From the NCBI GenBank assembly GCA_964490935.1, contig CAZBEO010000001.1, positions 20,742 through 84,741 of the forward strand: a stretch of 64,000 nt of DNA, in the 5' to 3' direction. Source of the DNA: an uncultured Verrucomicrobiota bacterium. Its GTDB lineage: Bacteria > Verrucomicrobiota > Kiritimatiellia > RZYC01. Both the position numbers and the translations under genes were made by a program. The notes below the pieces were generated by a model. That model was not told where the DNA came from and did no database searches. It worked only from the letters and a program-made list of their open reading frames with translations. Below are positions 9,511-54,343 of this stretch, piece after piece (position 1 is the first letter of the stretch; the number at the start of each line of letters is the position of its first letter).

Positions 9511-9518
9511 GCCTGATG

Positions 9519-10195: not shown

Positions 10196-10205
10196 GGACG
10201 ATCAC

Positions 10206-11363: not shown

Positions 11364-11377
11364 CTGGAGAAACCGTC

Positions 11378-12096: not shown

Positions 12097-12100
12097 CGTC

Positions 12101-23366: not shown

Positions 23367-23462
23367 GTGTTGTTTTTTTTGTCGGCTTCCCGGGGTCCGA
23401 TGACCCCGTGCCTTTCTCCCCGGCCCCTCCGGGGCCATCATGACGCTGACTTTTGTCGGTAT

Positions 23463-23560
23463 TTCCAACGATTGGAAAAAACGTCTGAAATAGTGCCAAC
23501 GATTGGAAAAACCGTAGCTGCACAGCAGTCCCGCCCACGCGGGATTTCCAATGGTTGGAA
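23463..23560. promoter_or_regulatory. three palindromic TTCCAA-N3-TTGGAA(AAAA) sites (23463..23477, 23495..23508, 23546..23560)
   Basis: Seen directly in the sequence, in the region upstream of the hydrolase gene and downstream of the giant gene. Each site is followed by an A-run. Preceded by the 13-nt GACTTTTGTCGGT, which is shared with the 50896 locus. Confidence 0.35.
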
Positions 23561-23604
23561 AAAACGATTTGAGCGGTTTTTGGCGTGCCGGGTTTCATGG
23601 TGGA

Positions 23605-26600
23605 TCAGGGTATCGAAACTCGGGTGCGGATGTAAAGGGTGCCGTGATTGGTGACGGGTATTTGGATGGCCCCGCCGGTGCCCGGGATGTTGGTCTGGAC
23701 CGCATTCCACTGAGGCGTGGTTAGGTTGGTGGTGGAGTAGATGTGATAGATGCGGTCGGACGCGGTGAAGAAGGTGACGTAGTCCTGCGAGGAGGAGGCG
23801 ACGGGGTTGACGGCAAAGAGCGAGGCGGGATCGGTGGGATCGGTGTGGGCGGTATATTCATCGCGATTGGACATGCCGTCGCCATCGGTATCGTCGTCAG
23901 ACTGGGCCGCGGTGGGGCTGGCGAAGTAGGTGTTTTCCCAGGTGTCGGGAAGTCCGTCGGAATCAGCATCGCCGGTGCAGCCGGTGATTGTCTGGGCGGT
24001 GTTAAGCGATCCACGTGTGGCGTCGGTGGCTGCAGCCCAAGTGAAATCGGCGTAGGTTGTTCCGGCTCCGGAAAGCTGGAGCGAGCGTCCGAGGGCGAGG
24101 GTGGTGGATTCGCTCACGCCGATGTCGGTGGAAAGCGTGCCGACGGCGAGGTTGTTGGCGGCGGTAAAGACCCCTTCATAACTCAGGAACTGAATGACGG
24201 CGGAGTCGGAGCGGCGAACGAGTGCGAGACCGTCGGGTGAGCCGTTTTGCAGGCCGGGCATATCGAACCAGAGGGTGCCAAAGCCGCATCCTTCGTCGGG
24301 CAGGAGGCCGGAAAGGGAGATCGCGCCGGCGTAGGCTTCTCCGTTATAGCCGTTGTAAGGAATGAGGGTGTAGTTGGTAAGGCTGATCCCGGCGGGACCG
24401 GCGATTTCAACGCCTTCATTGGTGTCACCACCGTCGTTATCATAATGGATTTCATTGATCCAAACGGAAGCGGACTCGGCAATACGCAGGGTCACGTCTT
24501 CGAAGTCGACCCCATCATCGCCAACGGCATAGAAGGTGCAGGTGTAGATGCCTACCGGTTGTGCCTGAGCCCAAGTGAAGGTTCCGGAGCCGTTCGTGGA
24601 GCCGAACGTTGCTCCGGATGGAGCGTTGCTGACGGAGAGCGTGATGGGTTCATTGTCGGGATCGGTGGCGGTGACGGCGAAGGAGAGTGAGCTGCCTTGC
24701 AGGGCCGTTTTCCCGCCGATAGCGGTAAGGACCGGCGGATTCGTGTTGCCGATGCGTACTTCCAGGGTGATGGTTTCGGAGTCGGTGAGGCGTCCATCGG
24801 TGGCATAGAAGGTGCAGGTGTAGACGCCGAGAGGATTCGGAGTGAGCCACTCGAACGTATCGCTGAGGAAGGTGGATCCCGCAGGGGCGTTGCTGACGGA
24901 ATAGGTGATGGCGTCGCCATTGTAGTCGGTGGCGTGGACCGTGAAATTCAGGGAGTTGCTCTCGATGACCGATTGGTTACCGATGGGGTTCAGCACGGGC
25001 GGCAGGTTGGTTTCGCCGTTGCAGGGATAAATGAGTTGATGTTCGTTGAGCCACCCGGGCGTGGCGGAATTGGTGGGGTTCGACCAGATGAATTCCATGT
25101 AGTTGGTGCCGAGGCCGCTGAGTTGGAGCGAGTTGCCGATGGGCGTGGTGTCGTTGGATTCACGCACGACGACATCCAGGGAATACTCGCCTGCGGCGGG
25201 ACCGTTGATGGCCAGGAAGGTGGGGCTGTAGCTGAGCAGCACAACGAGGTTCGTCCAATCACGAACCAGGGCGATGCCGCCGGTCTGCTGAAGGATTTTG
25301 GTGAATGGGACGGCGCCGTAGCCGCACCCTTCATCCGGGAGGACGCCGCTCAGCGCGTTGCTGGCATAGACGGAGCCATCGGTGCGGTAATAAAAGAGGG
25401 CGTAATAGGCTAGGTCCAACCCGGCGGTTCCGGCGATTTCCACGAACTCGCCGGTGTCGGTTCCATCGTTGTCGTAATGGAATTCGTTGATCCAGAGATC
25501 GCCTTCGGCAAGCACCTCGATGGTGATGGCCTCTGAGTCGATGCCGTCGTTGTCCACAGCTTGGAAGGTGGTGGTGTAGACACCACATACGGCGGTGTTG
25601 GACCAAGTGAAGACGCCGGTGTCGTCCAGCGAAACAAACGTGGCGCTTGGCGGTAGGTCGAAGGCCGAGAGGGTGATGGATTCCTCATCCGGGTCGACGG
25701 CAGTCACGGAAAATTGCAGGGTTTGATTCTGGATGACATGCCGGTTTCCAATGGGCTGAAGCACGGGCGCATTGGTGGCGGGGCTGACGGTGATCTTCAC
25801 GGAATCACTGTCGGCGCCATCGGTGTCGGTGGCGTAGAATACACACGTGTAGGCCCCCGCGGGTGCGGCATTGCTCCAGGTGAACAGGCCGAGTCCCGCC
25901 TCAGCGGAAAAATTCGCACCGGCGGGCAGATTGCTCACGGTCATGGTAATGGCATCGCCATCGGCATCGGTGGCGGCAACTTCAAAGGAGAGGGTGAGCC
26001 CTGTGGTGATGATCTTGTCGGCCACGTTCTGAATGACCGGCGCCTGCGCGCCGGAGGCCACCGTGATGATGACGGTTTCCGTGCCTGCACCATCATTATC
26101 TACGGCATAGAAGGTGGTGGTGTAGACGCCGGCCGGCACCGCCGAAGCCCAAGAGAACGTGCCGGTGGCTCCACTCGAATTGAACGTGGAGCCGGGTGGC
26201 GCATTGCTGACGCTTAGCGTGATTACATCGCCATTGACATCCACGGCGGTGATTGTGAATTCCAGCGCATTGCTTTGCACGACAATGGGATTACGGATCG
26301 GATAAATGGCAGGAGGTTGCTCTCCGGCGTCGGCGCTGGGGTACATACGCTGAAGTTCATTCAGCAGGCCGTGCGATGCAGCCAAGCCGTTATCCTGCCA
26401 GATAAAATCAGCATACGCGGTGCCCAAGCCGGTGAGCTGAAGCGAGCAGCCCGTCTCTGCGCCGGACTCGGACCCAATGTTCTCGGAGGATTCTTCGGCG
26501 GCTGGCCCAGTCACGCCCACCATGACGCCTTCGTAACTGATAAACTGCACGAGGTTCGTTTCATCCATGACCAGCGCGATGCCTTCCGTTTCGTTCTGCA

Positions 26601-29031
26601 GCCCGCTGATGGGCACCCAGACCGCGCCAAAGCCGCTGCCTTCATCCGGGATGGTACCAACGAGCGCAACGGATTTGTAGGCCGTGCCGTCGCCGCCGTT
26701 GTAGGCGAGCACCGAGTAATAGGAAAGTTCCACGCCGGCGGTTCCGGCGATTTCCACGCCTTCATCGGCATCCGTGCCTGCGTTGTCGTAATGGAGTTCA
26801 TTGATCCAGACCGTGCCATCCACCAGCACACGAATGGTGGCCGTGCGCGATTCCGTACCATCGGCATCCGTCGCCTGGAACGCACACGCATACACCCCGG
26901 CGGGCCCGGCGTTCGGCCATGAAAAACTTCCCTGCTCATTGGTGGAGGCAAAGAAGGCACCGGCAGGAAGGTTGGTGCAGGAGAGCGTGGCTGTGTCGCC
27001 ATCGGTGAGTTTGGCGTGTACGGAAAATTCGAGGGTTTGCCCTTCGGTCACGCGCTGGAGGGGGATGGCATCGAGCGAGGGCGGCGTGCGCCCGAGACTG
27101 AAAGATTTCATCACGGCCATGTGCGCATTTCCTATGGAGTCCGAATCGCTGTTCAGCACGGGCGAAGGCGGGGGCGGATTCGTCCAGAGGCGCGTATCGA
27201 AAACGAGCCCGTCGTGGAAGTCAACGCCCTGCACGGTCGTGCGGTAGTGATTTTCTTCGAGGTTGCGGCTGGGCAACACGTAGTCGAATGGGTACTCCCG
27301 GTTTCGGCTTGTTTCCGTGACCCCATATTGATCGGTGGGCTTGCGGGCATCGCTAACGACGTTGGTCAGAATCGCCAGGCAGGGCTCGGCACGCGACGCG
27401 GTGTTCAGGTCGCCGGCGATAACCAGATAATCGTTGGTCGGAAAATTCGCCAGAGCGATGTAGTTGGTCAGCAGGCGTGCCTCGGCGGCGCGATCCTCTT
27501 CGGTTCCAGAATAATAGATATGCAGACTGACCACGTGCAGATCGCGGTCGCCGGGGATATCAATGGTGGCCCAGGCGATATCGCGGTTCGCCGTGATCGG
27601 ATCGGCCCATTCCCCCGCGGCGGTGATGGGCCAGCGGCTGATAATGGCGTTGGGCTGCGGAAAATAGGCGCTGGATTGTGGTTCGATGTAATAATAATAC
27701 TCCGTGCCGAAAAAGACATCGACGAATTCGCGCATCGTGCTGTTCGTGATGTTACACTCTTGTAACCCGACAATATCCGGCTTCAGGGCGTGAAAGATGC
27801 GGTACGCCGGCTCCTTGTAGACCGAAGGAAAGCCATCAACCAAGTTGGCGGCCATGATGGAGATCGTTTCGTTGTCGCGGATCGAGAGCGTATGCGTGGC
27901 GGGCTCTCCGATCGTTGCCCCCTCCGCCCCATCCAGCGTCAGTGCGAGCGTTTCCACGCTTTCCATGTTGTCATCATCGGCAATCACCACGGAAATCATC
28001 TGCTGCGTTTCGCCGCCCGCCGTGAACACCAGCGAGGTGGGCGACACCGTGTAGTCCACCCCCGCCGAGGCCGTCCCGCCCGCATCGCCGATCCACACCG
28101 TCACATCCGCCGAACGCGAAAGAACCACGGCTACCTGCTGCGTACCGACATCCTCGTCCACCAGCGCATCCGCATAGGCGAAACAAACGGAGGGCGGTTC
28201 CGCCACCGTCAGGTTGACTTCGTCCAGGCTGTACCCATCCTTATCCGACGCATAAAACTGCATCGTTTGGACGCCGACGGGCGTCGCGCCCGCCCAGCGA
28301 AACGTCCCGTGCTCATTGGTCGAGACAAACGTCGAACCCGAGGGCGCGTTGCTCACCGACAGCGTCACCGGATCGCCATCCGTGGGCGTGGCAAACACGC
28401 TAAACTCGATCGTATCGCCCAGGGTGACGGTTCGGCTGGGAATGGCCTGTAACACGGGCGGCGTGTTGGCCGCTGCGCCATCATAATAATACAGCTCCAC
28501 GAATTCATAAAAAAAGTTGGCGGCATCCGAATATTCCGTAATCACCAGCACCGAGGTCTCGTCGGTTCCGACGCCCCCGACGCCCGGGGTCGCATCCGCC
28601 ATGCCCAGGGTACTCCAGTTGGTGACGGCATCGCCGCCCACCGAGGCATTCAGGCGCTGGATCGAGTTCCTTTTCGGATCACGCGACAAGGGCGTCGGGC
28701 CATCCAGCACCACCGAAGAGGCGTCCAGCAGGGAAAACTGTTCGCCGCCATCAATCACCGGCAACTGATTTTCCGCATTGAGGTAGAGCACTTCATCGCC
28801 CAGTGTGACCCCCCAGTACGCTTCAAAGTCGGCGCGGGAACCGTAACGACCAACAATCAGGTATTCACCCGGCTCGATCGTCGTTCCATCGGGCAGCGTA
28901 TACGTCTTGCTCCTGTTGGTTTGCTTGACCTTGTACCCCGAAACATCCAGGGCCGACGCCGTAACCACCAACGAGAGCCCCAGCAACATGGCGCACCACA
29001 GCTTAAAATATCCCGAGCTTCTGCATCCCAT
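23605..29031 (-). CDS. giant secreted multidomain protein (1808 aa): lamin-tail domains x4, Ig-like (He_PIG-type) repeats x~7, Calx-beta, endonuclease/exonuclease/phosphatase (EEP) domain, C-terminal Ca-binding Asp-rich module
   Basis: LTD motifs (WINELHYDNAGTDADEGVEIAG, LWINEFHYDNDGTDTGEFVEIAG, VWINEIHYDNDGGDTNEGVEIAG). EEP motifs (LQEC...AGDLNTASR...FDYVLP). Calx-beta (VDYTVSPTSL...SIRDNE). Signal peptide. ATG with an AAGGA RBS. Confidence 0.7.
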   Translation of the reverse strand: MGCRSSGYFKLWCAMLLGLSLVVTASALDVSGYKVKQTNRSKTYTLPDGTTIEPGEYLIVGRYGSRADFEAYWGVTLGDEVLYLNAENQLPVIDGGEQFSLLDASSVVLDGPTPLSRDPKRNSIQRLNASVGGDAVTNWSTLGMADATPGVGGVGTDETSVLVITEYSDAANFFYEFVELYYYDGAAANTPPVLQAIPSRTVTLGDTIEFSVFATPTDGDPVTLSVSNAPSGSTFVSTNEHGTFRWAGATPVGVQTMQFYASDKDGYSLDEVNLTVAEPPSVCFAYADALVDEDVGTQQVAVVLSRSADVTVWIGDAGGTASAGVDYTVSPTSLVFTAGGETQQMISVVIADDDNMESVETLALTLDGAEGATIGEPATHTLSIRDNETISIMAANLVDGFPSVYKEPAYRIFHALKPDIVGLQECNITNSTMREFVDVFFGTEYYYYIEPQSSAYFPQPNAIISRWPITAAGEWADPITANRDIAWATIDIPGDRDLHVVSLHIYYSGTEEDRAAEARLLTNYIALANFPTNDYLVIAGDLNTASRAEPCLAILTNVVSDARKPTDQYGVTETSRNREYPFDYVLPSRNLEENHYRTTVQGVDFHDGLVFDTRLWTNPPPPSPVLNSDSDSIGNAHMAVMKSFSLGRTPPSLDAIPLQRVTEGQTLEFSVHAKLTDGDTATLSCTNLPAGAFFASTNEQGSFSWPNAGPAGVYACAFQATDADGTESRTATIRVLVDGTVWINELHYDNAGTDADEGVEIAGTAGVELSYYSVLAYNGGDGTAYKSVALVGTIPDEGSGFGAVWVPISGLQNETEGIALVMDETNLVQFISYEGVMVGVTGPAAEESSENIGSESGAETGCSLQLTGLGTAYADFIWQDNGLAASHGLLNELQRMYPSADAGEQPPAIYPIRNPIVVQSNALEFTITAVDVNGDVITLSVSNAPPGSTFNSSGATGTFSWASAVPAGVYTTTFYAVDNDGAGTETVIITVASGAQAPVIQNVADKIITTGLTLSFEVAATDADGDAITMTVSNLPAGANFSAEAGLGLFTWSNAAPAGAYTCVFYATDTDGADSDSVKITVSPATNAPVLQPIGNRHVIQNQTLQFSVTAVDPDEESITLSAFDLPPSATFVSLDDTGVFTWSNTAVCGVYTTTFQAVDNDGIDSEAITIEVLAEGDLWINEFHYDNDGTDTGEFVEIAGTAGLDLAYYALFYYRTDGSVYASNALSGVLPDEGCGYGAVPFTKILQQTGGIALVRDWTNLVVLLSYSPTFLAINGPAAGEYSLDVVVRESNDTTPIGNSLQLSGLGTNYMEFIWSNPTNSATPGWLNEHQLIYPCNGETNLPPVLNPIGNQSVIESNSLNFTVHATDYNGDAITYSVSNAPAGSTFLSDTFEWLTPNPLGVYTCTFYATDGRLTDSETITLEVRIGNTNPPVLTAIGGKTALQGSSLSFAVTATDPDNEPITLSVSNAPSGATFGSTNGSGTFTWAQAQPVGIYTCTFYAVGDDGVDFEDVTLRIAESASVWINEIHYDNDGGDTNEGVEIAGPAGISLTNYTLIPYNGYNGEAYAGAISLSGLLPDEGCGFGTLWFDMPGLQNGSPDGLALVRRSDSAVIQFLSYEGVFTAANNLAVGTLSTDIGVSESTTLALGRSLQLSGAGTTYADFTWAAATDATRGSLNTAQTITGCTGDADSDGLPDTWENTYFASPTAAQSDDDTDGDGMSNRDEYTAHTDPTDPASLFAVNPVASSSQDYVTFFTASDRIYHIYSTTNLTTPQWNAVQTNIPGTGGAIQIPVTNHGTLYIRTRVSIP

Positions 29032-36220: not shown

Positions 36221-37444
36221 ATGCGTATCAAAGCATTCAAAGCGTATCGCCCGCCCCTGGAACTCACGGAAAAACTAGCCAGTCTTCCCTATGATGTCTA
36301 TTCCGTGGAAGAAGCGCGCGAGCTGACCGTCGATAATCCCTACGCCTTCCTGCACGTCAGCATCCCCGCCGTGGACCTCCCCGAAGATACGCCCGAAAAA
36401 GACGAAAGCGTCTATCAAAAAGCCGGCGAAAACTTCCAGGCCTTCATCGCAAAAGACTACCTCATTCAGGATGAAAAGCCCGGCCTCTTTCTCTATCGCC
36501 AGATCATGGGCAAACACCATCAGCGCGGCCTCGTAGCGGTCAGCCATGTGGATGATTACGACAAAGAACTCATCAAAAAACACGAGCACACCCGCGCCGC
36601 ACCCGAAGAAGACCGCACCCGCCACATCGAAGCACTCAATGCCCAGGCAGGACCCGTCTTCCTCACCTACCGCGATGTCCCCGAGATCAATGACATCCTC
36701 GCCGACATCGAAAAAAGCGAGCCGCTCTTTGATTTCACCGCACCCGACGGCATTCAACATGCCGCCTGGCGCATTCCCGAAACCGCACGCCTCGTGCAAC
36801 TCTTCGCCGCCATCCCAGTGGATTACATTGCCGACGGACACCACCGCGCATCCGCCGCCGCACGCGTTGCCCGCGAGCGCCGCGCCGCGCATCCCGAACA
36901 CGCCGGCGACGAAGAATACAACTGGTTCCTCACCGTCCTCTTCCCCTCCACCCAGCTCCAGATTCTCCCCTACAACCGCTGCATCGCCGACCTCCAGGGA
37001 CTCACTCCGAAAGAACTGATTGAAGCCATACGCCTGGCAGGCTTCACCGTACGCGAAACCACCCTCACCAAACCCGATAAACCCGGCATGATCTGCATGT
37101 ACCTCGCGGGAAAATGGTATGAAATGGGCTGCCCCAAAGTGGACTCCGCCGACCCGGTGCAAACCATGGATGTCAGCCTCCTTCAAAACCGTGTCCTGGC
37201 ACCTATCCTCGGAATCGATGACCCGCGCAAAAACCCGCGCGCTTCCTTCGTGGGCGGAATCCGCGGACCCGAGGAACTCAAAAAAAGAGTCGAATCCGGG
37301 CGCGACGCCGTGGCCTTCTCCATGTATCCCACCGACATCCGCCAGCTCATGGATGTGGCCGACGCCAACCTGGTCATGCCCCCGAAAAGCACCTGGTTCG
37401 AACCAAAACTCCGCTCCGGCCTCTTCGTGCATGCGCTAGAGTAA
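36221..37444 (+). CDS. DUF1015 family protein
   Basis: MRIKAFKAYRP...DGHHR signature of DUF1015. GGAGG RBS. Confidence 0.7.
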   Translation: MRIKAFKAYRPPLELTEKLASLPYDVYSVEEARELTVDNPYAFLHVSIPAVDLPEDTPEKDESVYQKAGENFQAFIAKDYLIQDEKPGLFLYRQIMGKHHQRGLVAVSHVDDYDKELIKKHEHTRAAPEEDRTRHIEALNAQAGPVFLTYRDVPEINDILADIEKSEPLFDFTAPDGIQHAAWRIPETARLVQLFAAIPVDYIADGHHRASAAARVARERRAAHPEHAGDEEYNWFLTVLFPSTQLQILPYNRCIADLQGLTPKELIEAIRLAGFTVRETTLTKPDKPGMICMYLAGKWYEMGCPKVDSADPVQTMDVSLLQNRVLAPILGIDDPRKNPRASFVGGIRGPEELKKRVESGRDAVAFSMYPTDIRQLMDVADANLVMPPKSTWFEPKLRSGLFVHALE

Positions 37445-37586
37445 AAGCATTCTCATCGCGCCTCTCTCTCGGGAGGGCCCGTGTCCCCACGGGCCAAGCG
37501 GAAAGTGAGCGCGGAGAGTACAGAGAAATATGGAACGACCTGAAGATCAATAAAAGGCCGTTGGGGACAACGACCCTCCCCAGAAC

Positions 37587-39366
37587 TCACTCGGCGAGAA
37601 TTCGCGCCTGCTGACGTTCGCGGAGAATGTCGCGGTTGGTCCAGACGAGCCAGGGATCGCGATACGGCAGGCCGCGCGGGGTGTCCTGAATGGTTTTCAG
37701 CTCTTCCGCGTCGATGGGCAGGCGAATCCGGGTGGGGTCGAGGGCGGCTACCGTGCCACTGCGCTGACGGCCCACCGGTTCCGTTTCACCAATGGAAAAG
37801 CCCGCCTGCATCAGACCGGCGCGAACAGGCAACGCCGCACAATAGGTCACAAGCACCGAATCGGGTTTCATCACGGCACGGATGAGGCGAAAGAAATCCA
37901 GGGTCCAGAGTTCGCTGTTGCGCTGGGTGGAGAAGGCATCGAGAAAGACGATGTCCTGCGAGACGGGAGGCACGGATTGAACCGTGTGGCGGGCATCACC
38001 CAACCGAAGGTGAATGGTGCTGAACGCGGCGTTGGAGTCGCCGGAGTCATGCAGCGCACACAGTCGGACGCTCCAGGAAAAGGCCTCGGAGGCTTCTTCC
38101 GGCATCACGGCGGCGGCTCGGAGCAGTACGCGCCGATCCAGCTCAAGGGCTGTGACATGCAGCGGATGCTGCTTCAACTGTTCGGCCAGATTACAGGCAA
38201 CTAGCGTGTTGTAGCCGAGGCCGAAACAAATATCGAGGAGGGCGACCGGGCCGTCGGCCAAGCGCCGATCCAACTCCACCGGCTGCACATATTTTTTCTC
38301 GGCCTCCAGGCGTGCGCCGGCCTGGGTGTGGTAGTGCTCTTTGAAGTCGTTGTTCCAGAGGGTGATGCTTCCATCGCCAGTGATGACGGCCTCAGGCGCG
38401 GCAGATGCCGTGGCCTCGCCGGACGCCCCGCCGGGCACCAGATCACCCTGGCACCATTCCCGGAGAATCATCTGCTGCTGAATAGTCTCCATGAACCGCC
38501 CCTTGGGCATGTGCCATTGCGGGGCGACGAGTTCTTCGGGCGGGGTATCGGTGGTCATGCGAATGACGGGCCACGCACGCGGAATACGGCGCAGGAAATC
38601 GAGCAGCATTTCGCCGTAGGCATATTCCTGATACACGGAAAAGGGGTGAGCGGCATATTCATCGGCCAGAGGTGTATTTTTAATGACGTGCAGATTGTGT
38701 ATTTTGACAGCCTCGATGGGGAGGGCGGCGAGGGTTTCGGCGGTGGTGTTGATGTGTTCCTGATCTTCGCCGGGAAGACCGAGGATCACATGCGCGGCGA
38801 TGGGTATGCCCCGTGCGTGAAGGGCGGCCACCGCCCGTTCGGTTGCGGCATAGTCGTGCCCGCGGTTAATACGGCGCAGGGTGGCGTCGTGTACGGTCTG
38901 AATGCCCAGCTCAACCCACACATCGGTGGTCTCTGCCCAAGAGGACAAAAAATCGAGCGTGGATTCGGAAAGGCAGTCGGGTCGGGTGCCGATGGATATG
39001 GCGTCGAACGAGGCCATGCCGCGCACCTGCTCGAAGAGCATGCGCGTGGCGGCATCGAGTTCATGGGTGGCAGTGAAGGCCTGAAAATAGAGCATGTAGC
39101 GGCGGGCTAAATAGCGCCTGCGTGCAAAATGAATGGCGGCGGCGACCTGCTCTGCGATGGTCTCGCTGTTCATGGTCTGCACGGCACGCGCACCGTGTTC
39201 CGGGCAGAACGTGCAGCCGCCCGAGCCGGAGAGATCGCGATGCGGGCAGCCGCGCCCGAGGTCCACCGGGATACGGAAGAGCGGTCCCCCGTAGCGCTGA
39301 ATCATGTAGTCCCGATAAAGGGTTATCGGCTTTGCATCGGAATGGGCTGGTGTGAATTCCATCATG
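37587..39366 (-). CDS. fusion protein: TIGR01212-family radical SAM (YhcC/YtqA-like) N-terminal domain + MnmC2/MnmD-like tRNA mnm5s2U methyltransferase C-terminal domain
   Basis: The N-terminal half matches TIGR01212. The C-terminal half carries LDICFGLGYNTL...DIVFLDAFS...DSVLVTYCAA. The start is taken at the ATGATG immediately after the tsf terminator. Confidence 0.6.
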
Positions 39367-39380
39367 GGGGTGGAAACAAA

Positions 39381-39420
39381 ACAGGCGGCGCTTATGCGGC
39401 GCCGCCTGTCTGTTTTGGTT
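39381..39420. terminator. bidirectional Rho-independent terminator (GGCGGCGC-loop-GCGCCGCC flanked by A- and T-runs)
   Basis: Perfect 8-bp GC stem. A T-run follows on the plus strand and a TGTTTTGTTT run on the minus strand (downstream of tsf). Confidence 0.6.
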
Positions 39421-39435
39421 AACGTAGTGTTACGC

Positions 39436-40281
39436 TTATTCGCCCAGTTGGTAGCGGACAAAGCGGCGGATGGAAAGGGTGTCGCCGAGTTCCTTGCCTT
39501 TGGCGGCGAGGAGCTTGTTGATGGTCCATTCCGAATCCTTTACGAATTCCTGATCCAGCAGACATATCTGACTAAAGTACTTGTTGATCTTTCCGCCTAC
39601 GATCTTCTCAATAATGTTGGCTGGCTTGCCTTCCTGCTCCATCTGCTTGACGTAGATTTCCTTTTCGGAGGCCACCACGTCGGATGGGACATCGGCATCG
39701 CAAAGATAGCGCGGGTTCGCGGCGGCAATCTGAAGCGTCAGGTCCTTGACCAGTTCAGCGAAGACCTCGCTGCCGACCGTCTCGCCCTTTTCGCAGGCCA
39801 CTTCAATCAGTACGCCAACCTTGCCACCCAGATGCACATAGGAGGCCAAGCGCCCCGTGCTCTGAAGCGCATAAGCGATGTTGCGGCTCACCACCAGATT
39901 TTCACCGATTTCGGTGATCTTGGCGGTCGTTTCATCCTTTACGGCTTCCGCCAAGGCGCCATCGGCTAGGCCTTTGGCCTTTTCGTGGAGCGACTTCACA
40001 AACGCCTGGAAGGTTTCATTGCGGGTGACAAAGTCGGTCTCGCAATTCACTTCAATCATCACCGCCTTGTTTCCGTCTTCATAGACGGATGCGGCGATGA
40101 GGCCGTCCTTAGCCGCACGCGAGGCCTTTTTTCCGGCAATGGCCACGCCGCGTTCGCGGAGCAGCTTGATAGCCTGCTGCATGTCGCCATCGGCTTCCTG
40201 GAGCGCACGTTTGCATTCCATCATGCCCACGTTCGTGGCTTCACGCAGCTCTTTGACCTGTTTTGCATTGATTTCTGCCAT
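39436..40281 (-). CDS. tsf: translation elongation factor Ts
   Basis: VKELREATNVGMMECKRAL N-terminal UBA-like signature, EF-Ts dimerisation domains. Strong RBS. Confidence 0.9.
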   Translation of the reverse strand: MAEINAKQVKELREATNVGMMECKRALQEADGDMQQAIKLLRERGVAIAGKKASRAAKDGLIAASVYEDGNKAVMIEVNCETDFVTRNETFQAFVKSLHEKAKGLADGALAEAVKDETTAKITEIGENLVVSRNIAYALQSTGRLASYVHLGGKVGVLIEVACEKGETVGSEVFAELVKDLTLQIAAANPRYLCDADVPSDVVASEKEIYVKQMEQEGKPANIIEKIVGGKINKYFSQICLLDQEFVKDSEWTINKLLAAKGKELGDTLSIRRFVRYQLGE

Positions 40282-40319: not shown

Positions 40320-41351
40320 TTATTCAGCGGCAGGCGCTGCCGCCTCGGGGGCGGGTGCCGCCTCGACTGCGACCGCAGGTGCTTCAACCGGAGCTGCTTC
40401 AACCGGGGCTTTCACTGGCTCAACCGGGGCTGCTTCGACCTTCGCTTCGGTTTTGACTTCCGCTTTCGCCTCGGCTTTGGCTTCCACCGACTTAGCGGCT
40501 TCTTCGGCCTTCTTCGGTACACGAGTTTTGCGGGCGGTTTCTTCCTTCACGCGGCGCGTTTCGCGTTCGCTTTTGGCCTTGGCCTTGGCTTCGGCGTCTT
40601 CGGCGGCCTTGCGGCGCAACTCGTCGGATGCCTTCTTGGCGTATTCATTCGAAGCCTGAAGAATCGTATCGCCCAGCGCCTTGGTCACCAGGCGAATCGC
40701 GCGAATGGCGTCGTCATTGCCTGGGATGGGATAGTTGATGTTGTCCGGATCGCAGTTCGTATCCAGCATGGCAATGACGGGGATGCCCAGCTTGTTGGCT
40801 TCCGTCACAGCAATGGACTCGCGGTTCACATCCACCACAAAAAGTGCACCCGGCAAGCGGTTCATTGAAGAAATGCCGCACAGATTCTTCTGCAGCTTGT
40901 CCAGCTCGCGACGAAAGCGCGCCGCTTCCTTCTTCGATCCCGCGCTCTTGAAGCCGTCGTCGGTTTCCATTTTTTCGAGTTCGCGCATACGGTTGATGCT
41001 GTTGCGCATGGTATCGTTGTTGGTCAGCATGCCGCCCAGCCAGCGATGGGTCACGTAATGCTGTTTCAGACGATCGGCCGTTTCTTTCAGCGGCTCCTGC
41101 GCCTGCTTTTTCGTGCCGACAAACAACACGGATTTGCCGGAAAGAATCAAGTCATACACGAACTCCTGCGCCACGCGCAGCAGGGCCAAGCTCTTGGCCA
41201 GATCGATGATGTAGATTCCGTTGCGCTCGCCAAAAATGAAGCGTTTCATTTTGGGATTCCAGCGCTTGGTTTGATGCCCGAAGTGAAGGCCTGCATCCAG
41301 TAAATCCTGGACAGCCACTTTAGTCTGAACGACACTGCTGCTATCTGCCAC
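40320..41351 (-). CDS. rpsB: 30S ribosomal protein S2 with ~100-aa Lys/Ala/Glu-rich C-terminal extension
   Basis: LLDAGLHFGHQTKRWNPKM core. GTG start with AGGAGG 5 nt upstream (the ORF-track start is a longer alternative). Low-complexity KAE/AP tail. Confidence 0.85.
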   Translation of the reverse strand: MADSSSVVQTKVAVQDLLDAGLHFGHQTKRWNPKMKRFIFGERNGIYIIDLAKSLALLRVAQEFVYDLILSGKSVLFVGTKKQAQEPLKETADRLKQHYVTHRWLGGMLTNNDTMRNSINRMRELEKMETDDGFKSAGSKKEAARFRRELDKLQKNLCGISSMNRLPGALFVVDVNRESIAVTEANKLGIPVIAMLDTNCDPDNINYPIPGNDDAIRAIRLVTKALGDTILQASNEYAKKASDELRRKAAEDAEAKAKAKSERETRRVKEETARKTRVPKKAEEAAKSVEAKAEAKAEVKTEAKVEAAPVEPVKAPVEAAPVEAPAVAVEAAPAPEAAAPAAE

Positions 41352-44477: not shown

Positions 44478-44675
44478 TGAAAAGCACGATACCCGAGCGG
44501 CCCACATACCGCAACGCGGAATGCAGCAACCCGCATTGCTCCTTCTAATTAACTTGAAATAAAGCCTTCATTTCATAAACTTACGATTCGATTGTGGTTA
44601 GTATTGGTCTCGCACGTTTGTTCCCCCACCTTGCGCCAGAGAGGCGCGCCGAATCGGGAACGCGAAGGAAATGTC

Positions 44676-46976
44676 ATGGATGATCTTTTACTGGATTTTA
44701 TAACGGAGTCAAAAGAACACCTAGATACCATCGAGGATGACTTCGTCATGCTCGTCCAGCAAAAAGACAATCCAGACAGCGAACTGGTCAACAAGGTGTT
44801 CCGCGCCATTCACACGGTGAAGGGCGTGGCCGGGTTCGTCGGGCAGAAACGCATCGGCGAACTCTCTCACGTCATGGAGTCCCTCCTGCAGCAAATCAAG
44901 GTAGGCAAAAAGAAGCCCGAACAGCGCTACATGGATGTCCTGCTCGAGGGCGTGGACCAATTGAATACCATGCTGGACAACATCGAGGACGCCAACGATA
45001 TGGATATTTCTAAGGTATACGACAAACTCAGCGTGCTGGTGGAGGAAGAGAGCCCGAGCGCCGAGGCAGCGCCACTCCAATCGAAGTCCGAGCCGCCTAC
45101 GGAAGAAAAGAAAAAAGCTACCGCAAAAAGCAAGAAGGCGGACGTGGCACCTGCCAAAGAAACCCCGCCACCCCCTCCTGAGCCCGAACCACTGGCCGAC
45201 ATCCCGGAACTCTCTATTACGCCGGACATGATCGCGCGCTTCACGCAGGAATCCATGGACCTGCTCGACGAAGCGGAGCAAGGCCTCCTGCAGATTGACA
45301 AACATCCGGAAGGTGCCGATGGCTATATCGGAGAAGCCTTCCGCATGATGCACAGCTTCAAGGGCAACTGCGGATTCTTCGGCTTGGCCGATTTTGAACA
45401 GCTTAGTCACAGGGTCGAAAACATACTCGATGCCATGCGACACGGCGAAACAGCCGGATCAAAAAACGCCATTGGACTCCTGCTGAAAATGGTGGACTTC
45501 CTTCGCAACGGCCTGACCAATTACGCCGAGCACGGCAAATCCAAAATTCTCGGTCTGCCCGGGATGCTGGACCTGCTCAGCGACATGATCCCTGGCGAGG
45601 CTCCCGAAAAGAGTGCGGAGGCTCCTACCTCCACTCCGGCACCCGAAGAAAAGAAAGAAGAACTAACGTTCGACAAGGAGGAACCACCGCCGCCGCCCGC
45701 CAAGCCAGAAAAGGCGGTTGCCCCGCCCCCCGCTCCCGCGCCCAAAGAGGAAAGCCAGACAAGCACGACCAGGTCGATGCCCACTGCCACTGCAGCGGTA
45801 CGCCAGGGCATCCGCGTGGACATTGACAAACTCGACCGCCTCATCAACCTGGTGGGCGAACTGGTCATCGCCGAGGCGATGGTGGTGCGCAATCCGGCGG
45901 TCATGGACATGGAAGACGAAACACTCGAGCGGGCCATTCACCACTTAAACCGCGTCTCCGCTGATCTGCAGGATGTGGCCATGTCCGTGCGCATGGTGCC
46001 CCTCTCCGCCACCTTCCGCAAGATGACGCGTCTGGTCTACGATGTTTCCAAAAAAGCGGGAAAAAACGTGGAGTTACAACTCGATGGCGAAGACACTGAG
46101 GTGGACAAAACCGTGATCGAGCAGATCGGCGATCCCCTGGTACATATCGTGCGCAACGCCATTGATCACGGACTCGAAAACCCCGAAGAACGCCGGGCCG
46201 CCGGCAAGTCCGAAAACGGCATCGTGCACATCGAAGCACGTCACGAAGGCGGCGAAGTCTGGATCATCATCAAGGACGACGGCAAAGGCCTGAACCGTGA
46301 GCGCATCCTGAAAAAAGCCGTGACCAACGGCCTGATTCAGGAAGACCAGGCATCTGAAATGAAAGACGAAGAAGTCTTTAAACTGGTCTTTGAACCGGGA
46401 TTTTCCACGGCGGAAAAGGTCACAGATATCTCCGGGCGCGGCGTGGGCATGGACGTGGTGAAAAAGAACATCGAAAAGCTGAAGGGCCGTGTTGAAGTGC
46501 GAAGCAAACCCGGCCAGGGAAGCACCTTTATTATGCACATCCCGCTGACGCTGGCCATCATCGACGGCATGTTGATCCGCGTGAGCGATGCCCGCTACAC
46601 CATTCCATTGCTATCCATCCGGGAAACACTGCGTCCAACCCGCTCGCAAATCACGGTGACGCCGGACGGCCAAGAAATCGTGCGGCTGCGCGAGGAAATG
46701 ATTCCGGTATTGCGGCTCCATAAAATTTTCAACAAGAAGACCGACTGCGCCTCGCTGGAGCAGGGCCTGCTGATCATTGTGGAATGCGACCGGGACTGTG
46801 TGGCCCTGTTTGTGGATGAATTGCTCGGGCAGCATCAGACGGTCATCAAGGGCCTGTCGGACTATCTGGGAAGCGCACGCGGCGTATCCGGGTGCACCAT
46901 TCTGGGTGATGGGCAAGTCAGCCTGATTCTGAATGTGGGTGGCTTGATCGATATCAGCAACGATCAACGCGCCTGA
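44676..46976 (+). CDS. cheA: chemotaxis histidine kinase CheA with two Hpt (P1) domains
   Basis: Two Hpt domains (FRAIHTVKG and FRMMHSFKG), Pro-rich linkers, a dimerisation domain, HATPase (GRGVGMDVV), and a CheW-like C-terminus. Confidence 0.85.
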   Translation: MDDLLLDFITESKEHLDTIEDDFVMLVQQKDNPDSELVNKVFRAIHTVKGVAGFVGQKRIGELSHVMESLLQQIKVGKKKPEQRYMDVLLEGVDQLNTMLDNIEDANDMDISKVYDKLSVLVEEESPSAEAAPLQSKSEPPTEEKKKATAKSKKADVAPAKETPPPPPEPEPLADIPELSITPDMIARFTQESMDLLDEAEQGLLQIDKHPEGADGYIGEAFRMMHSFKGNCGFFGLADFEQLSHRVENILDAMRHGETAGSKNAIGLLLKMVDFLRNGLTNYAEHGKSKILGLPGMLDLLSDMIPGEAPEKSAEAPTSTPAPEEKKEELTFDKEEPPPPPAKPEKAVAPPPAPAPKEESQTSTTRSMPTATAAVRQGIRVDIDKLDRLINLVGELVIAEAMVVRNPAVMDMEDETLERAIHHLNRVSADLQDVAMSVRMVPLSATFRKMTRLVYDVSKKAGKNVELQLDGEDTEVDKTVIEQIGDPLVHIVRNAIDHGLENPEERRAAGKSENGIVHIEARHEGGEVWIIIKDDGKGLNRERILKKAVTNGLIQEDQASEMKDEEVFKLVFEPGFSTAEKVTDISGRGVGMDVVKKNIEKLKGRVEVRSKPGQGSTFIMHIPLTLAIIDGMLIRVSDARYTIPLLSIRETLRPTRSQITVTPDGQEIVRLREEMIPVLRLHKIFNKKTDCASLEQGLLIIVECDRDCVALFVDELLGQHQTVIKGLSDYLGSARGVSGCTILGDGQVSLILNVGGLIDISNDQRA

Positions 46977-49831: not shown

Positions 49832-49842
49832 GAGGTATGCCC

Positions 49843-50778
49843 ATGACCTCTCCCGAACTCGTGACTATTCCCGATTCATTCAACTACATCGGAATCTTTC
49901 TTACCTTCCGCTGTCCCTACCGCTGCTCCTACTGCATCAACCAGTACGGCAACGGCGTTCACCTCGACTACCCCGAAATCCCCGGCACCGACTGGGTGAA
50001 TTTCTTCCGCCGACTCCCCGCCAACGACATACCCATTACCCTCCAGGGCGGTGAACCCGGACTCCACCCCGACTTCTTCTCCATCCTGCACGACACCCTC
50101 GAATTTCACCCCGTGGACATCCTGACCAACCTCGCCTTTGATCTCGACCGCTTCATTGCCGAGATTGATCCCGCTCGCATCAATCGACCCGCCCCTTACG
50201 CCCCCATTCGCGTCAGCTTCCACCCCGAACAATTTTCTCTGCCCTTTATCACCGAAAAAATTCTTCTCCTCATGAACGCTGGATTCCGCGTCGGCCTCTA
50301 CGGCGTAACCCACCCCAATCAGACAGACCTCATGGAAGAGGCCGCCAGCACCTGCCGAAACCTGGGCATAGACTTCCGACTCAAACCCTTTTTGGGCACC
50401 CACCAAGGAAAACTCCACGGACAATACACCCACCCCGATGCCTGCGACGGAAAGTCCCCCCGCACCTGCGACTGCGCCACCTCTGAACTGCTCGCCGCCC
50501 CCGACGGCACCATCCACCGCTGTCACACCTTTTGCTACCGGCACCTCCAACCCGTGGCCACCATCTACGATGCCCAACTCACCCTCACCGACGACTTCAC
50601 CCCCTGCAATCTCTTCGGCCAGTGCAACCCGTGCGACATCAAAGTAAAAAACAACCGCTTCCAGCAGTTCGGCCACGTCGCCACCCGCATCCGAAACATT
50701 CGCTCAAAAGTTTGCGACATGATGGCCCCGGGAGGGGCCGAGGATAATAGCCCGGGGTCAGCGACCCCGGGAAGTTGA
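49843..50778 (+). CDS. radical SAM protein with Cys-rich SPASM-like C-terminus
   Basis: CPYRCSYC cluster motif and C-terminal CDC...C...C...CNPC cysteines. Translationally coupled to the GT9 gene. Confidence 0.6.
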   Translation: MTSPELVTIPDSFNYIGIFLTFRCPYRCSYCINQYGNGVHLDYPEIPGTDWVNFFRRLPANDIPITLQGGEPGLHPDFFSILHDTLEFHPVDILTNLAFDLDRFIAEIDPARINRPAPYAPIRVSFHPEQFSLPFITEKILLLMNAGFRVGLYGVTHPNQTDLMEEAASTCRNLGIDFRLKPFLGTHQGKLHGQYTHPDACDGKSPRTCDCATSELLAAPDGTIHRCHTFCYRHLQPVATIYDAQLTLTDDFTPCNLFGQCNPCDIKVKNNRFQQFGHVATRIRNIRSKVCDMMAPGGAEDNSPGSATPGS

Positions 50779-50916: not shown

Positions 50917-51897
50917 TCATCGGAACGATTGGATCAGATCGCCGGAGACGACGGTTTTGCGGGTGCCGTCGGGGAGGCGCAGGACGAGGGCTCCCTCCGG
51001 CGTAATGGATTCGGCATGGCCTTCGAGGGCTCCCGCTTCCTGTCGTACGGTGACGGTTCGGCCGAGCGTGCAGCTTCGGGCGCGCCAAGCCTCGAGCACC
51101 GGTTCAAATCCTTCCGTGCAAGCCTGCACGTAGCGCCGTTCAAAGGATTCGATAATCGTGCGGGCGAGCGCCCTGCGGTCGAGCGGCGCGCCGGCCTCGG
51201 CGGCCAGCGAGGTGGCCTGTTCGCGCAGTTCCGGCGGAATGGCATCGGCGGGTGTGTTGATGTTGAGTCCGATGCCCAGGACGGCGTAATCAATCGAATC
51301 GAGATCAAAGCCAGCTTCCGTCAGGATGCCGCAGATTTTTTTTTCGCCGATCAGCAGATCGTTCGGCCATTTCACCTCGGCACGAATTCCGGCAGTCTCT
51401 TCAATCGCTTCGGAGACGGCGACGGCGGCCAGCAGGGGCAACAAGGTGAGACTTCGTGGAGAAAAGCCGGGGCGCAACAGCATGGTAAAACACAGGCCAT
51501 GCGAGGCATCCGAGAGCCATGCGCGCCCGCGCCGCCCCCGTCCGTCTGTTTGGTGTTCAGCAATGAACAGGGTGCCTTCAGGGCATCCGGAGAGAGCGGC
51601 CTCTTTGGCGGTCGTATTGGTGGACGGCAGTTGCCTGAAGTAGTGAATGCCTTGTTGTCCGAAGTGCTTTGTTTGAAGCTGAAAGCGTATTTCTTCGGGC
51701 AGCAGGAGGTCGGGCGCGGCATGGAATCGGTAGCCTTTTCGGTGGGCGGATTCGATGCGGTAGCCCATCTCGTTAAGGGTGGCGACCTGTTTGCTCACGG
51801 CCATTCGGCTGATACCGAGTTGCGTGGCGAGGCTTTCGCCGGTGAGCCAGCCGTCAGACGTGCGCAGTGCGGTAAGAATCGAATCGCGATTAGTCAT
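50917..51897 (-). CDS. birA: bifunctional biotin-[acetyl-CoA-carboxylase] ligase / biotin operon repressor
   Basis: N-terminal HTH, BPL catalytic GRRGRAW and KWPNDLL motifs. The start overlaps the upstream gene stop by 8 nt. Confidence 0.8.
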   Translation of the reverse strand: MTNRDSILTALRTSDGWLTGESLATQLGISRMAVSKQVATLNEMGYRIESAHRKGYRFHAAPDLLLPEEIRFQLQTKHFGQQGIHYFRQLPSTNTTAKEAALSGCPEGTLFIAEHQTDGRGRRGRAWLSDASHGLCFTMLLRPGFSPRSLTLLPLLAAVAVSEAIEETAGIRAEVKWPNDLLIGEKKICGILTEAGFDLDSIDYAVLGIGLNINTPADAIPPELREQATSLAAEAGAPLDRRALARTIIESFERRYVQACTEGFEPVLEAWRARSCTLGRTVTVRQEAGALEGHAESITPEGALVLRLPDGTRKTVVSGDLIQSFR

Positions 51898-54343
51898 GTT
51901 CACTCCCCCCGGCAGCGCGCAGGCGATCCGCCGCTTCGCTTGCCAACCCCACGGTTTGATCACGGTTTTCCTGCAGTAATTCGATGCGAAAAGCAGCGGC
52001 CCCGCGAAAAGCGTCGGCCTCGAGAAGAGCCAAGGACGACTCGGGTTGGTTGCGGATGATCTGATTGCGCCCGACCTGATCGCGCAGGGCCCTATACGTC
52101 ACGCCCTTGCGGTCCGTCAGTTCCAATTCGTTGGCCTTGCATGGTTCGCCGCACTTCGGCCAGCCATGCCCCGTGCCGAGGTGATGCGCGTAGAGGCAGT
52201 ATTGGGTAAAGAAGAGCGTGGGATGATGGTACGCGAGCCATTCCCAGCGACCAGGGTCGGTTTGGCGCGCCAGGAGGGCGCGGGCCTCTTCATCGAGTTC
52301 GAGCGCGGGGGTCAGAGCGGTCAATCCGCAGCGCAGGGCTTTTTGCGCGGCGGCGGGGTGCGCGATGTTGAGGGAAAAATCGCCGATCAATTCCAGGCCC
52401 GGGTGCAGTCGCCGCATGCGGCGGAAGGCACCCCAGGTGCGTGCGAGATAGAAATCAGGTTCGAGCGCGGCATGCTCTTCAATGAGATGTGCCTGCGGTT
52501 CGGTGATCACGCGCGGGCTGGTCAATCCCACCGGGAGGCCCGCTTCGCGCGTCCGGGCTAGGGCCTCGCGTAGAGCCTTTCCACCCGGAAATTCCAAGTA
52601 GATTCCCACGGGCGCGGCCATGTGCGGTGCGTGTTCGAGAAGCGCATCGAGTTGTTCTTCGGAGCGGACCAACCATTTCAGCACGGGTGCATAGGCCCCG
52701 GCTTCCTGAAGCACCGGCAAGGGCTCTTCGGGAAGGACGATATGCTGTTCAGCGTGTAGGCGCTGCTCTAGTAGGCGCTCAACCAGTTGGCGGCGCAGCT
52801 CGTTGAGCACGCTTTTCGGGATCATGAGGTCCGTTTGCTGAACCTGACCCTCCGCGCCTTCCAGCGTGATGGAGCCGGGGGCGTAGGGCGTATCGCCAAG
52901 GCGGCCCAACTGCTCGGTCAGCACCTCAAGGGTCGTCGGGCGGGTGCGGGCAGGCTCGGGCACGTGGGAGGATTCCACCTCCGCCTCGTGACCTGCCGCA
53001 TCGCGCCCGTACAGGCGGAGGGGCCGCCCCGCCGACGCAAACAACCTAAAATCCAACAGCACCGGATGCGGTGTGGTGATCTTGGCGTATGACTGGCGCA
53101 GCTCGCGGTCCAGCACCGGATCGGACGTCTTCCACACCGTCATCCCCGGGCGCAACGATGAAAGCTCCACGTCCTCCCGCCCAAAACCAAGTTCATACGC
53201 CTCGGGACCATGGCCCGAAGCAGGCAGACGTTGTGCCTGATAAATGCGGGCACCGGACCTGCGCCCCTCCGTATCCGGATAATCAAAGGCCACGCCGTCG
53301 CCCGGCTGTGGGGGAAAGAGCAAGTCCTTCGCCGTGTCCAGAATAACCGATCGCCTGCCGATGCGCGAAAGAGTTCCAAGCAGCAAACCTTGGTGCCCCA
53401 CGAGGCGGGAATCAACCAGTTCCGCATGTTCGTCGCCATGGACATAACCGGCGGTTTGCCCGCGTGCAAAAAGAATTTCCAGCGTCTGATGGGGCCGCTC
53501 GGTGCTGACCTTCTGATCGCGAAGCGCCGCCTGAATGGCATCGCGGTAGGCCGCCACCGTCGCAGCCACGTAGTCGGCCTTTTTGAGGCGTCCCTCGATC
53601 TTGAAGCAGGTCACGCCCGCCTGGATGCGCTCCTGCACAAAATCGAGCCCGCAGAAATCTTTTGGGCTGAGGAGGTGGCGACCCGGCGTTTCGAGGGGTG
53701 AACCGTGATTGGAGAGCGCGTAGGGTAGCCGACACGGCTGAGCGCACGCCCCCCGGTTTGCGCTGCGCCCGCCCATATAAAAACTGGCATGACACTGCCC
53801 GGAATAGGAGATGCACAAGGCCCCGTGCACAAACACCTCGAGTTCCACGGAGGTCTGCCAGCGAAGGTGGCGAATTTCCTCGGTGCTCAGCTCGCGCGGA
53901 AGAATCACGCGCGTAATGCCGAGTTCCTCCTGCGCCCAATTGATCGCCTCGGGCTCTGAAAGGGTCATTTGTGTGGAGGCGTGCAGCGGAAGCGAGGGAA
54001 TCCGACGGTGAATCCAGTCGGCCAGGCCGATGTCCTGTACAATCACGGCATCCACCCCCGAATGCGCCGCCGCCTCGGCCAGTCGCACCGCTTCATCCCA
54101 CTCATTTGGAAAAATCAGCGTGTTCAGCGTCAGATACAGCCGCACATTATGCCGGTGACACAGCGCCACAGCCTCCCCTAATCGCGGCCCTTCAAAATTC
54201 TCCGCCCGCAATCGGGCATTGAACCGGCCCGTACCCAGATAGACGGCATCCGCGCCATTCGCAATCGCGGCGCGCAAAGACTCCTCGTCACCTGCGGGCG
54301 CGAGCAATTCAATTGGGACGGGTTGCAGTGGCTGGCTTGTCAT
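51890..54343 (-). CDS. U32-family peptidase-like protein (YegQ/RlhA-like) with DUF3656-type C-terminal extension
   Basis: U32 core with conserved Cys cluster (CISYSGQCHAS...CAQPCR). 817 aa. Confidence 0.75.
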   Translation of the reverse strand: MTSQPLQPVPIELLAPAGDEESLRAAIANGADAVYLGTGRFNARLRAENFEGPRLGEAVALCHRHNVRLYLTLNTLIFPNEWDEAVRLAEAAAHSGVDAVIVQDIGLADWIHRRIPSLPLHASTQMTLSEPEAINWAQEELGITRVILPRELSTEEIRHLRWQTSVELEVFVHGALCISYSGQCHASFYMGGRSANRGACAQPCRLPYALSNHGSPLETPGRHLLSPKDFCGLDFVQERIQAGVTCFKIEGRLKKADYVAATVAAYRDAIQAALRDQKVSTERPHQTLEILFARGQTAGYVHGDEHAELVDSRLVGHQGLLLGTLSRIGRRSVILDTAKDLLFPPQPGDGVAFDYPDTEGRRSGARIYQAQRLPASGHGPEAYELGFGREDVELSSLRPGMTVWKTSDPVLDRELRQSYAKITTPHPVLLDFRLFASAGRPLRLYGRDAAGHEAEVESSHVPEPARTRPTTLEVLTEQLGRLGDTPYAPGSITLEGAEGQVQQTDLMIPKSVLNELRRQLVERLLEQRLHAEQHIVLPEEPLPVLQEAGAYAPVLKWLVRSEEQLDALLEHAPHMAAPVGIYLEFPGGKALREALARTREAGLPVGLTSPRVITEPQAHLIEEHAALEPDFYLARTWGAFRRMRRLHPGLELIGDFSLNIAHPAAAQKALRCGLTALTPALELDEEARALLARQTDPGRWEWLAYHHPTLFFTQYCLYAHHLGTGHGWPKCGEPCKANELELTDRKGVTYRALRDQVGRNQIIRNQPESSLALLEADAFRGAAAFRIELLQENRDQTVGLASEAADRLRAAGGSEHD

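Follow-up and report, generated by a model that had tools for sequence, protein, structure and literature searches.

A natural fusion of an MnmL/YtqA-type radical SAM domain with an MnmC2-type tRNA methyltransferase domain in an uncultured Kiritimatiellae bacterium

The DNA analysed here, hereafter the window, is a stretch of 64,000 nucleotides from contig CAZBEO010000001.1 of an uncultured Kiritimatiellae bacterium. On its minus strand it carries a gene whose 592-residue product joins an N-terminal radical S-adenosylmethionine (SAM or AdoMet) domain of the MnmL/YtqA/YhcC type to a C-terminal methyltransferase domain of the MnmC2 type. Both families belong to the pathway that produces 5-methylaminomethyl-(2-thio)uridine, mnm5(s2)U, at the wobble position (U34) of tRNA. 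The gene and the parts of its product are as follows (residue numbers refer to the 592-residue protein):

37587-39365, minus strand: coding sequence of the MnmL-MnmC2 fusion, a single open reading frame (ORF) of 592 codons plus the stop codon at 37587-37589
38442-39317, minus strand: MnmL/YtqA/YhcC-type radical SAM domain (residues 17-308; PF04055 core plus PF16199), assigned by TIGR01212
39204-39248, minus strand: predicted [4Fe-4S]/SAM cluster motif C40-x10-C51-x2-C54 (GCPHRDLSGSGGCTFC), from the alignment of 51 homologs
38388-38441, minus strand: variable inter-domain linker rich in Gly, Ala, Ser and Pro (residues ~309-326), from the homolog alignment and the AlphaFold2 (AF2) model
37647-38387, minus strand: MnmC2/DUF752-type domain, putatively an AdoMet-dependent nm5(s2)U34 methyltransferase (residues 327-573), from PF05430 and the match to 3VYW
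38208-38234, minus strand: methyltransferase motif I, D378-ICFGLGY-N386, predicted to bind the methionine moiety of AdoMet, from the 3VYW alignment
37911-37940, minus strand: methyltransferase motif IV, D476-A-F478...N483...E485, predicted catalytic DxF and adenine contacts, from the DUF752 alignment

A preliminary description of this DNA had reported such a fusion at 37587-39366. The gene is indeed there, but that interval counts 1780 nt, which is not a multiple of three, and the true end is 39365. The two halves lie in one frame, and the product (MMEFTPAH...ILAE) is read through without any stop codon or frameshift between them. The same architecture recurs widely. Among the 120 best database homologs, a lower bound on their number (48-100% identity, 553-684 aa, the entry P0002 being partial), Radical_SAM and Methyltransf_30 domains occur together in every protein and are accompanied by Radical_SAM_C in 119. 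A scan of the species-representative genomes of GTDB found relatives in 164 genomes, and of the best 80 loci, which were kept, 76 align with the query over practically its whole length and 4 end early, 3 of them at the end of a contig. With the identical contig deposited in ENA (ERZ27315495), the set comprises 81 loci; in all of them the halves lie on one strand, in one frame and without an intervening stop, 13-33 residues apart, and a single locus contains masked residues (two). The window seems to belong to a metagenome-assembled Kiritimatiellae genome, which could make one think of an assembly or sequencing artefact, or of a recent frameshift that united two neighbouring genes. Such an origin is hardly credible, as it is effectively refuted by the 81 of 81 independent in-frame loci, drawn from different assemblies and from isolates, and by the existence of at least 120 database proteins of the same architecture. 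The fusion is real, and its architecture has been stable over at least 80 species-level genomes.

The survey across phyla that had been proposed in the preliminary description places the fusion in Kiritimatiellales (with Pontiella and Tichowtungia), in Lentisphaerota/Victivallales, in Desulfobulbales (Desulfogranum, Desulforhopalus and Desulfotalea) and in Margulisbacteria. Cultured isolates are among the hosts, and the isolate genomes include Pontiellaceae B12227, Desulfogranum mediterraneum DSM 13871 and Desulforhopalus vacuolatus DSM 9700. The closest relative, at 89% identity, is the Kiritimatiellae metagenome-assembled genome (MAG) STF2_14. Over the loci, the identities of the N-terminal and C-terminal halves to the query covary (r = 0.80, or r = 0.56 once the two closest relatives are left out), so that the comparison would fit a fusion that is inherited or transferred whole.

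The N-terminal half had been described as a radical SAM domain of the YhcC/YtqA type, and this assignment is borne out by TIGR01212 (IPR005911), whose present NCBIfam title is 'tRNA modification radical SAM protein MnmL/YtqA'. The model is matched with 252.1 bits, well above its cutoff of 180, and residues 17-308 cover positions 5-298 of its 302. In the Pfam scan, PF04055 (Radical_SAM) spans residues 36-211 (E 4e-16) and PF16199 (Radical_SAM_C) residues 218-299 (E 1e-24). Escherichia coli YhcC is 33% identical over residues 12-284, and in the BLASTP alignment the cysteine motif (CPxRD...GGCxFC context) pairs with CPNRDGTIGRGGCTFC of YhcC. The three cysteines C40, C51 and C54 are present without exception in the 51 fusion homologs. 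Elp3 radical SAM domains were returned when the N-terminal half of the AF2 model was compared with solved structures by Foldseek (E 4e-13 to 1e-9), in keeping with a fold like the partial TIM barrel of Elp3, and also in a sequence search of the structure database, where they ranked after the MnmC2-type matches.

For the C-terminal half, the preliminary description had pointed to a methyltransferase of the MnmC kind and had quoted two motifs, which we located at residues 376-388 (LLDICFGLGYNTL) and 471-479 (DIVFLDAFS). This half does match an MnmC-family profile: PF05430 (Methyltransf_30) is passed over residues 449-542 with 88.1 bits against a gathering cutoff of 22 (E 5e-25). Its nearest known relative is the stand-alone MnmC2 of Aquifex aeolicus, also called DUF752, whose structure 3VYW is the best solved-structure match of the whole protein (E 2e-32, residues 323-573, 34% identity over 242 aligned residues), followed by the methyltransferase domain of E. 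coli YfcK/MnmC. Foldseek gave the same order for the AF2 model, with the 3VYW chains on top (E 1e-20, TM 0.74 normalised to 3VYW), then E. coli YfcK (2QY6) and then MnmC structures.

The roles of individual residues have been published for the A. aeolicus protein, where methylation cannot proceed without D193, the counterpart of E. coli D178 (PMC3527978). Every AdoMet-binding or catalytic residue named in that study has a counterpart in the fusion protein, which possesses motifs I-IV of class I methyltransferases. Motif I pairs with D102...L107-N110 of DUF752, L383-N386 being equivalent to L107-N110; in motif II, D410/R411 stand for E133/K134; in motif III, D457/A458 correspond to D174/A175; and in motif IV, D476/F478 correspond to D193/F195, N483 to N200 and E485 to E202. 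The mapped AdoMet and catalytic residues are invariant in the 51 homologs, among them D378, F381, G382, G384 and N386 in motif I and D476, A477, F478, S479 and E485 in motif IV; the exceptions are L383, Y385 and N483, kept in at least 90%.

The AF2 model built from the 51 homologs has a pLDDT of 89.5 and a pTM of 0.89. The pLDDT is lower, at 67-79, over residues 311-350 around the linker, which in the homolog alignment is a poorly conserved block of variable length. Because the cofactor-binding and catalytic residues are conserved and the predicted folds match those of known enzymes, both halves look catalytically competent.

The roles of YtqA and YtqB in tRNA modification, which the preliminary description had mentioned, are documented. 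MnmM (YtqB) is the methyltransferase of Bacillus subtilis that acts on 5-aminomethyl-2-thiouridine, nm5s2U (PMC9976899), and the identification of MnmL (YtqA) is due to Jaroch et al., to whom protein fusions between YtqA and MnmC2 gave the lead clue (bioRxiv 10.1101/2023.12.21.572861). The genetics of MnmL come from B. subtilis and Streptococcus mutans, in which nm5s2U is made out of 5-carboxymethylaminomethyl-2-thiouridine, cmnm5s2U. More recently, E. coli YhcC was presented as an ortholog of MnmL that converts cmnm5s2U into nm5s2U in vitro and, under anaerobic conditions, in vivo (2026 preprint 10.64898/2026.05.18.725915).

Jaroch et al. counted 3 fusions in the genomes of the COG database and 70 in InterPro (bioRxiv 10.1101/2023.12.21.572861). 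Their list includes a 597-residue 'YtqA+MnmC2' protein of Kiritimatiella glycovorans (WP_052881676.1/A0A0G3ECZ6), placed in cluster 8 of their sequence similarity network (SSN); the genome of this organism encodes MnmA, MnmG and MnmE, and the fusion is its only COG4121 protein. Also listed are several proteins from Kiritimatiellaceae MAGs and those of Pontiella desulfatans (A0A6C2TZ70, 589 aa), P. sulfatireligans and Tichowtungia aerotolerans, with further examples in Lentisphaerae, Sulfurospirillum, Arcobacter, Sulfurovum, Desulforhopalus and Margulisbacteria (10.1101/2023.12.21.572861). The window protein shares with these published fusions the domain order (radical SAM N-terminal, MnmC2 C-terminal), the length class and the phylum. 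It is 54% identical to the P. desulfatans protein (P0033 in our homolog set) over 97% of the query and shows no substantive difference from the published fusions; it represents a further ortholog, from an uncultured member of the Kiritimatiellae. The preliminary description had taken the fusion as independent support for a functional link between the two families. The link stands, but the support is neither independent nor new, as this very class of fusions was the lead evidence in the discovery of MnmL. Since fusions from the same bacterial group were already published in 2023 as a clue to MnmL function, the observation is correct but ordinary.

Comparison with better known systems helps to place the protein. 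It has the radical SAM core, the cysteine motif and the Radical_SAM_C domain in common with YhcC of E. coli and with YtqA of B. subtilis. However, the latter are stand-alone proteins of ~310-330 aa whose methylase partners are separate (in E. coli the MnmC2 domain of MnmC, in Bacillus MnmM), whereas the window protein carries its methylase covalently. With A. aeolicus MnmC2 it shares the AdoMet contacts and the catalytic DAF, and the match to 3VYW also takes in the C-terminal region beyond the Rossmann fold, as far as residue 573. A. aeolicus MnmC2 stands alone and is believed to get nm5U straight from MnmEG; in the window protein, by contrast, the covalent partner is a demodifying enzyme, an arrangement that would imply the glycine (cmnm5) route. 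E. coli MnmC follows the same logic, the last two steps being covered by one polypeptide that combines demodification with an MnmC2 methyltransferase. Its domain order (MnmC2-MnmC1) is nevertheless the opposite one, and its demodifying module, MnmC1, is an O2-dependent oxidoreductase using flavin adenine dinucleotide (FAD) instead of a radical SAM enzyme. The models for bifunctional MnmC match the window protein through their methyltransferase part only (positions 12-229 of 645), with 71.5 and 57 bits against cutoffs of 540 and 600, and the Pfam and NCBIfam scans found no DAO/FAD domain in it. The window protein would be a functional analogue of E. coli MnmC and is not a member of its family.

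We favour the reading, with a probability of roughly 85%, that the fusion protein is a bifunctional, O2-independent enzyme of the tRNA wobble uridine that would convert cmnm5(s2)U34 into nm5(s2)U34 and the latter into mnm5(s2)U34. The substrate would be the product of MnmE and MnmG on tRNAs such as those for Glu, Lys and Gln. In the MnmL domain, a [4Fe-4S] cluster held by C40, C51 and C54 would cleave SAM reductively to a 5'-deoxyadenosyl radical, which would initiate the oxidative loss of the carboxymethyl group, yielding nm5(s2)U34. A second SAM would then donate the methyl group in the MnmC2 domain, where D476, in the DAF motif, would act as the catalytic base, so that the free amine becomes that of mnm5(s2)U34. 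The fusion would hold both activities at a 1:1 stoichiometry on one tRNA-binding protein. The architecture, families, residues and predicted folds that underlie this reading were seen here, and the chemistry of each module comes from the literature. We infer that a single polypeptide performs both steps, and likewise the exact site of hydrogen abstraction, for which the amine N, the glycine C-alpha and the C5-methylene have all been discussed as options (10.1101/2023.12.21.572861).

Oxidative decarboxylation is also among the chemically possible outcomes of hydrogen abstraction (10.1101/2023.12.21.572861) and, formally, cmnm5 minus CO2 is mnm5. One could thus imagine that the radical SAM half decarboxylates cmnm5(s2)U straight to mnm5(s2)U, leaving the methyltransferase to mop up nm5(s2)U that arises elsewhere. 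We find this very improbable, given that purified YhcC turns cmnm5s2U-tRNA into nm5s2U and that anaerobic mnm5s2U formation in vivo still needs MnmC2 (10.64898/2026.05.18.725915). Moreover, the catalytic residues of the methyltransferase are strictly kept in every fusion, which would make the second step obligatory.

The kinship of the C-terminal half with A. aeolicus MnmC2, which works without a demodifying partner, raises another alternative, in which only this half would take part in the mnm5 pathway. The nm5(s2)U would then be supplied by MnmEG with ammonium, and the radical SAM half would have some other radical SAM activity on tRNA or serve mainly in tRNA binding. It has also been cautioned that the YtqA/YhcC subgroups need not all share one function (bioRxiv 10.1101/2023.12.21.572861), and a lysine of YhcC discussed below, K21, is not kept in the window protein. 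On the other hand, the cysteine triad and core of the radical SAM domain are invariant across the fusion family, as expected of a live enzyme, and the TIGR01212 equivalog model is matched far over its cutoff. YhcC itself, once thought to be non-isofunctional, has since been shown to possess MnmL activity, and doubts have been raised about the evidence in vivo that speaks for an ammonium route (10.64898/2026.05.18.725915). For SSN cluster 8, the fusion subgroup, isofunctionality has been rated highly probable (10.1101/2023.12.21.572861). We consequently regard a role for the methyltransferase alone as unlikely; including the artefact dealt with above, all three rival explanations are weak.

Several points nevertheless weigh against the bifunctional reading. 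By the stricter criterion of NF033855, the MnmC2 equivalog-domain model of NCBIfam, the C-terminal half is a divergent member of the MnmC2 group: it scores 107.5 bits, under the cutoff of 136, with an alignment that runs nearly end to end (residues 338-540 on model positions 3-206 of 209). In the pairwise BLASTP alignment, the position of YhcC K21, proposed to be a conserved lysine of the tRNA-binding cleft, is occupied by Pro28 (codon 39282-39284, minus strand), which is also the consensus of the fusion family. R31, close to Pro28, is invariant across the fusion homologs, and YhcC R279 would correspond to the fusion-invariant K288 if one continues the alignment manually and without gaps past the end of the BLASTP match (YhcC W275/query W284). 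The proline may mark a clade-specific difference in tRNA binding. Jaroch et al. themselves, who inferred that MnmL/MnmC2 fusions are an alternative enzyme pair for the step from cmnm5 to mnm5, described this as 'awaiting experimental validation' (10.1101/2023.12.21.572861), and our literature search for an experiment on any fused MnmL-MnmC2 protein found none. In S. mutans and Streptococcus pneumoniae, mnm5s2U persists after deletion of MnmL, indicating that the roles of MnmL-family proteins can be conditional (10.64898/2026.05.18.725915). Lastly, the 64-kb window contains no mnmE, mnmG or mnmA, the genes of the putative substrate pathway. Neither these genes nor mnmM or an MnmC1-type oxidase were found among the ORFs of the window (Pfam on the public contig; NCBIfam and Pfam on 40 ORFs), which is too small for an absence of partner genes to mean anything.

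In a bolder version of the bifunctional reading, the fusion would be mechanistically required and more than a convenience: the MnmC2 domain would lend the grip on tRNA for which stand-alone MnmL has a basic cleft of its own (the position of YhcC K21 being Pro in the window protein), and nm5(s2)U34 would pass from one SAM-using active site to the other without being released. We consider this version doubtful. If true, the protein would be an 'anaerobic MnmC', coupled and O2-independent, whose properties could not be predicted from the separate enzymes.

In its simpler form, the bifunctional reading already has some reach, as the fusion connects the YhcC/YtqA radical SAM family, long an orphan, with the final steps of mnm5s2U34 formation and shows how anaerobes could substitute for the O2-dependent MnmC1 oxidase, a proposal that is already in print. 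What was deduced from the fusion class has later found support in genetic work and in enzymology carried out in vitro with E. coli YhcC. The lineages that bear the fusion are mostly anaerobic or microaerophilic, in agreement with the association of MnmL with anaerobes. MnmC1 requires O2, and genomes that possess only MnmL belong mostly to anaerobes (10.64898/2026.05.18.725915).

The start of the gene deserves some attention, as three initiation codons can be considered and the preceding gene, tsf, is very close. Two hairpins flank the coding sequence:

39381-39409, minus strand: GC-rich hairpin followed by a T-run after tsf (terminator scan; 12-bp stem, 9 GC pairs)
37552-37579, minus strand: terminator-like hairpin directly 3' of the fusion stop codon (terminator scan, weak; 5/12 GC pairs)

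The ORF listing gives a single frame at 37587-39461 (minus strand; 624 aa counted from a TTG), in which the ATG at 39365 is codon 33. We rejected the TTG at 39461 as an unlikely start because a gene beginning there would overlap the last part of tsf, whose stop codon is at 39436, and reading would have to cross the hairpin at 39381-39409. This hairpin, which stops ~10 nt 5' of the fusion ATG, looks like a strong terminator of tsf; the scan lists it on the plus strand, yet the stem is palindromic and on the minus strand it is followed by TTTTGTTT. At the other extreme, the public gene call of 572 aa (P0001, on ENA contig k141_323293 of identical sequence) begins at Met21 and loses conserved residues. 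As P13 and Y17 are kept in at least 90% of the 51 homologs and residues 11-30 are modelled by AF2 at a pLDDT above 90, this call, short by 20 N-terminal residues (39305-39365), is probably mis-annotated. A promoter scan of 37300-39700 detected no sigma-70-like promoter. Read-through or a non-canonical promoter could be envisaged for the transcription of a gene so near the tsf terminator.

The fusion gene comes after rpsB-tsf (minus strand) and converges on a gene for a DUF1015 protein, beyond which lie metW/metX-like genes. We dropped this neighbourhood as functional evidence, since the synteny is not kept among the 80 fusion loci: DUF1015 is found only in the closest relative, and rpsB-tsf (downstream) in one Pontiella locus only. 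The rpsB product itself (40320-41351, minus strand) is a ribosomal protein S2 with a repeat-like C-terminal extension of ~90 residues rich in Ala, Glu, Lys and Pro (...KAEAKAEVKTEAKVEAAPVEPVKAPVEAAPVEAPAVAVEAAPAPEAAAPAAE).

At 51890-54343 (minus strand) lies a gene for an 817-aa protein of the U32 family, whose N-terminal ~200 residues resemble TrhP, the prephenate-dependent tRNA U34 hydroxylase (207 bits against a cutoff of 534), and UbiU (196 against 440). The protein is much longer than either of them and, going by these partial matches, may be another O2-independent modification enzyme or a quinone enzyme. The 313-aa ORF at 49837-50778 (plus strand), which adjoins a heptosyltransferase-like gene, has a sub-threshold match to Radical_SAM (27.3 bits against a cutoff of 29.5) and belongs to no NCBIfam family.

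Phosphonate biosynthesis is represented at 1-2279 (minus strand), where a phosphonopyruvate decarboxylase gene (432 bits) runs past the start of the window and adjoins a gene for a phosphoenolpyruvate mutase (380 bits) that carries a fused cytidylyltransferase domain at its N terminus (residues 8-139). Genes for flagellar rod, ring and hook-associated proteins (flgG, flgF, flgH, flgI and flgK) and cheA are found in the regions 7847-13537 and 44592-46976, in what seems to be a Kiritimatiellae genome. A 1145-aa protein with arylsulfotransferase (ASST) domains is encoded at 18992-22429 (plus strand); the ORFs beside it, at 17656-18960 and 22405-23598, gave no family match in the Pfam and NCBIfam scans. 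A gene for a protein of 1808 aa with Calx-beta, Exo_endo_phos and Ig-like repeats lies at 23605-29031 (minus strand). Finally, two paralogous genes for ATPases of the AAA_14 plus DUF4143 type, at 2313-3494 and 4660-5877 (both minus strand), surround a GDP-L-fucose-synthase-like gene (3630-4571), and their GC contents at third codon positions, 0.52 and 0.59, are lower than the ~0.70 of their neighbours.

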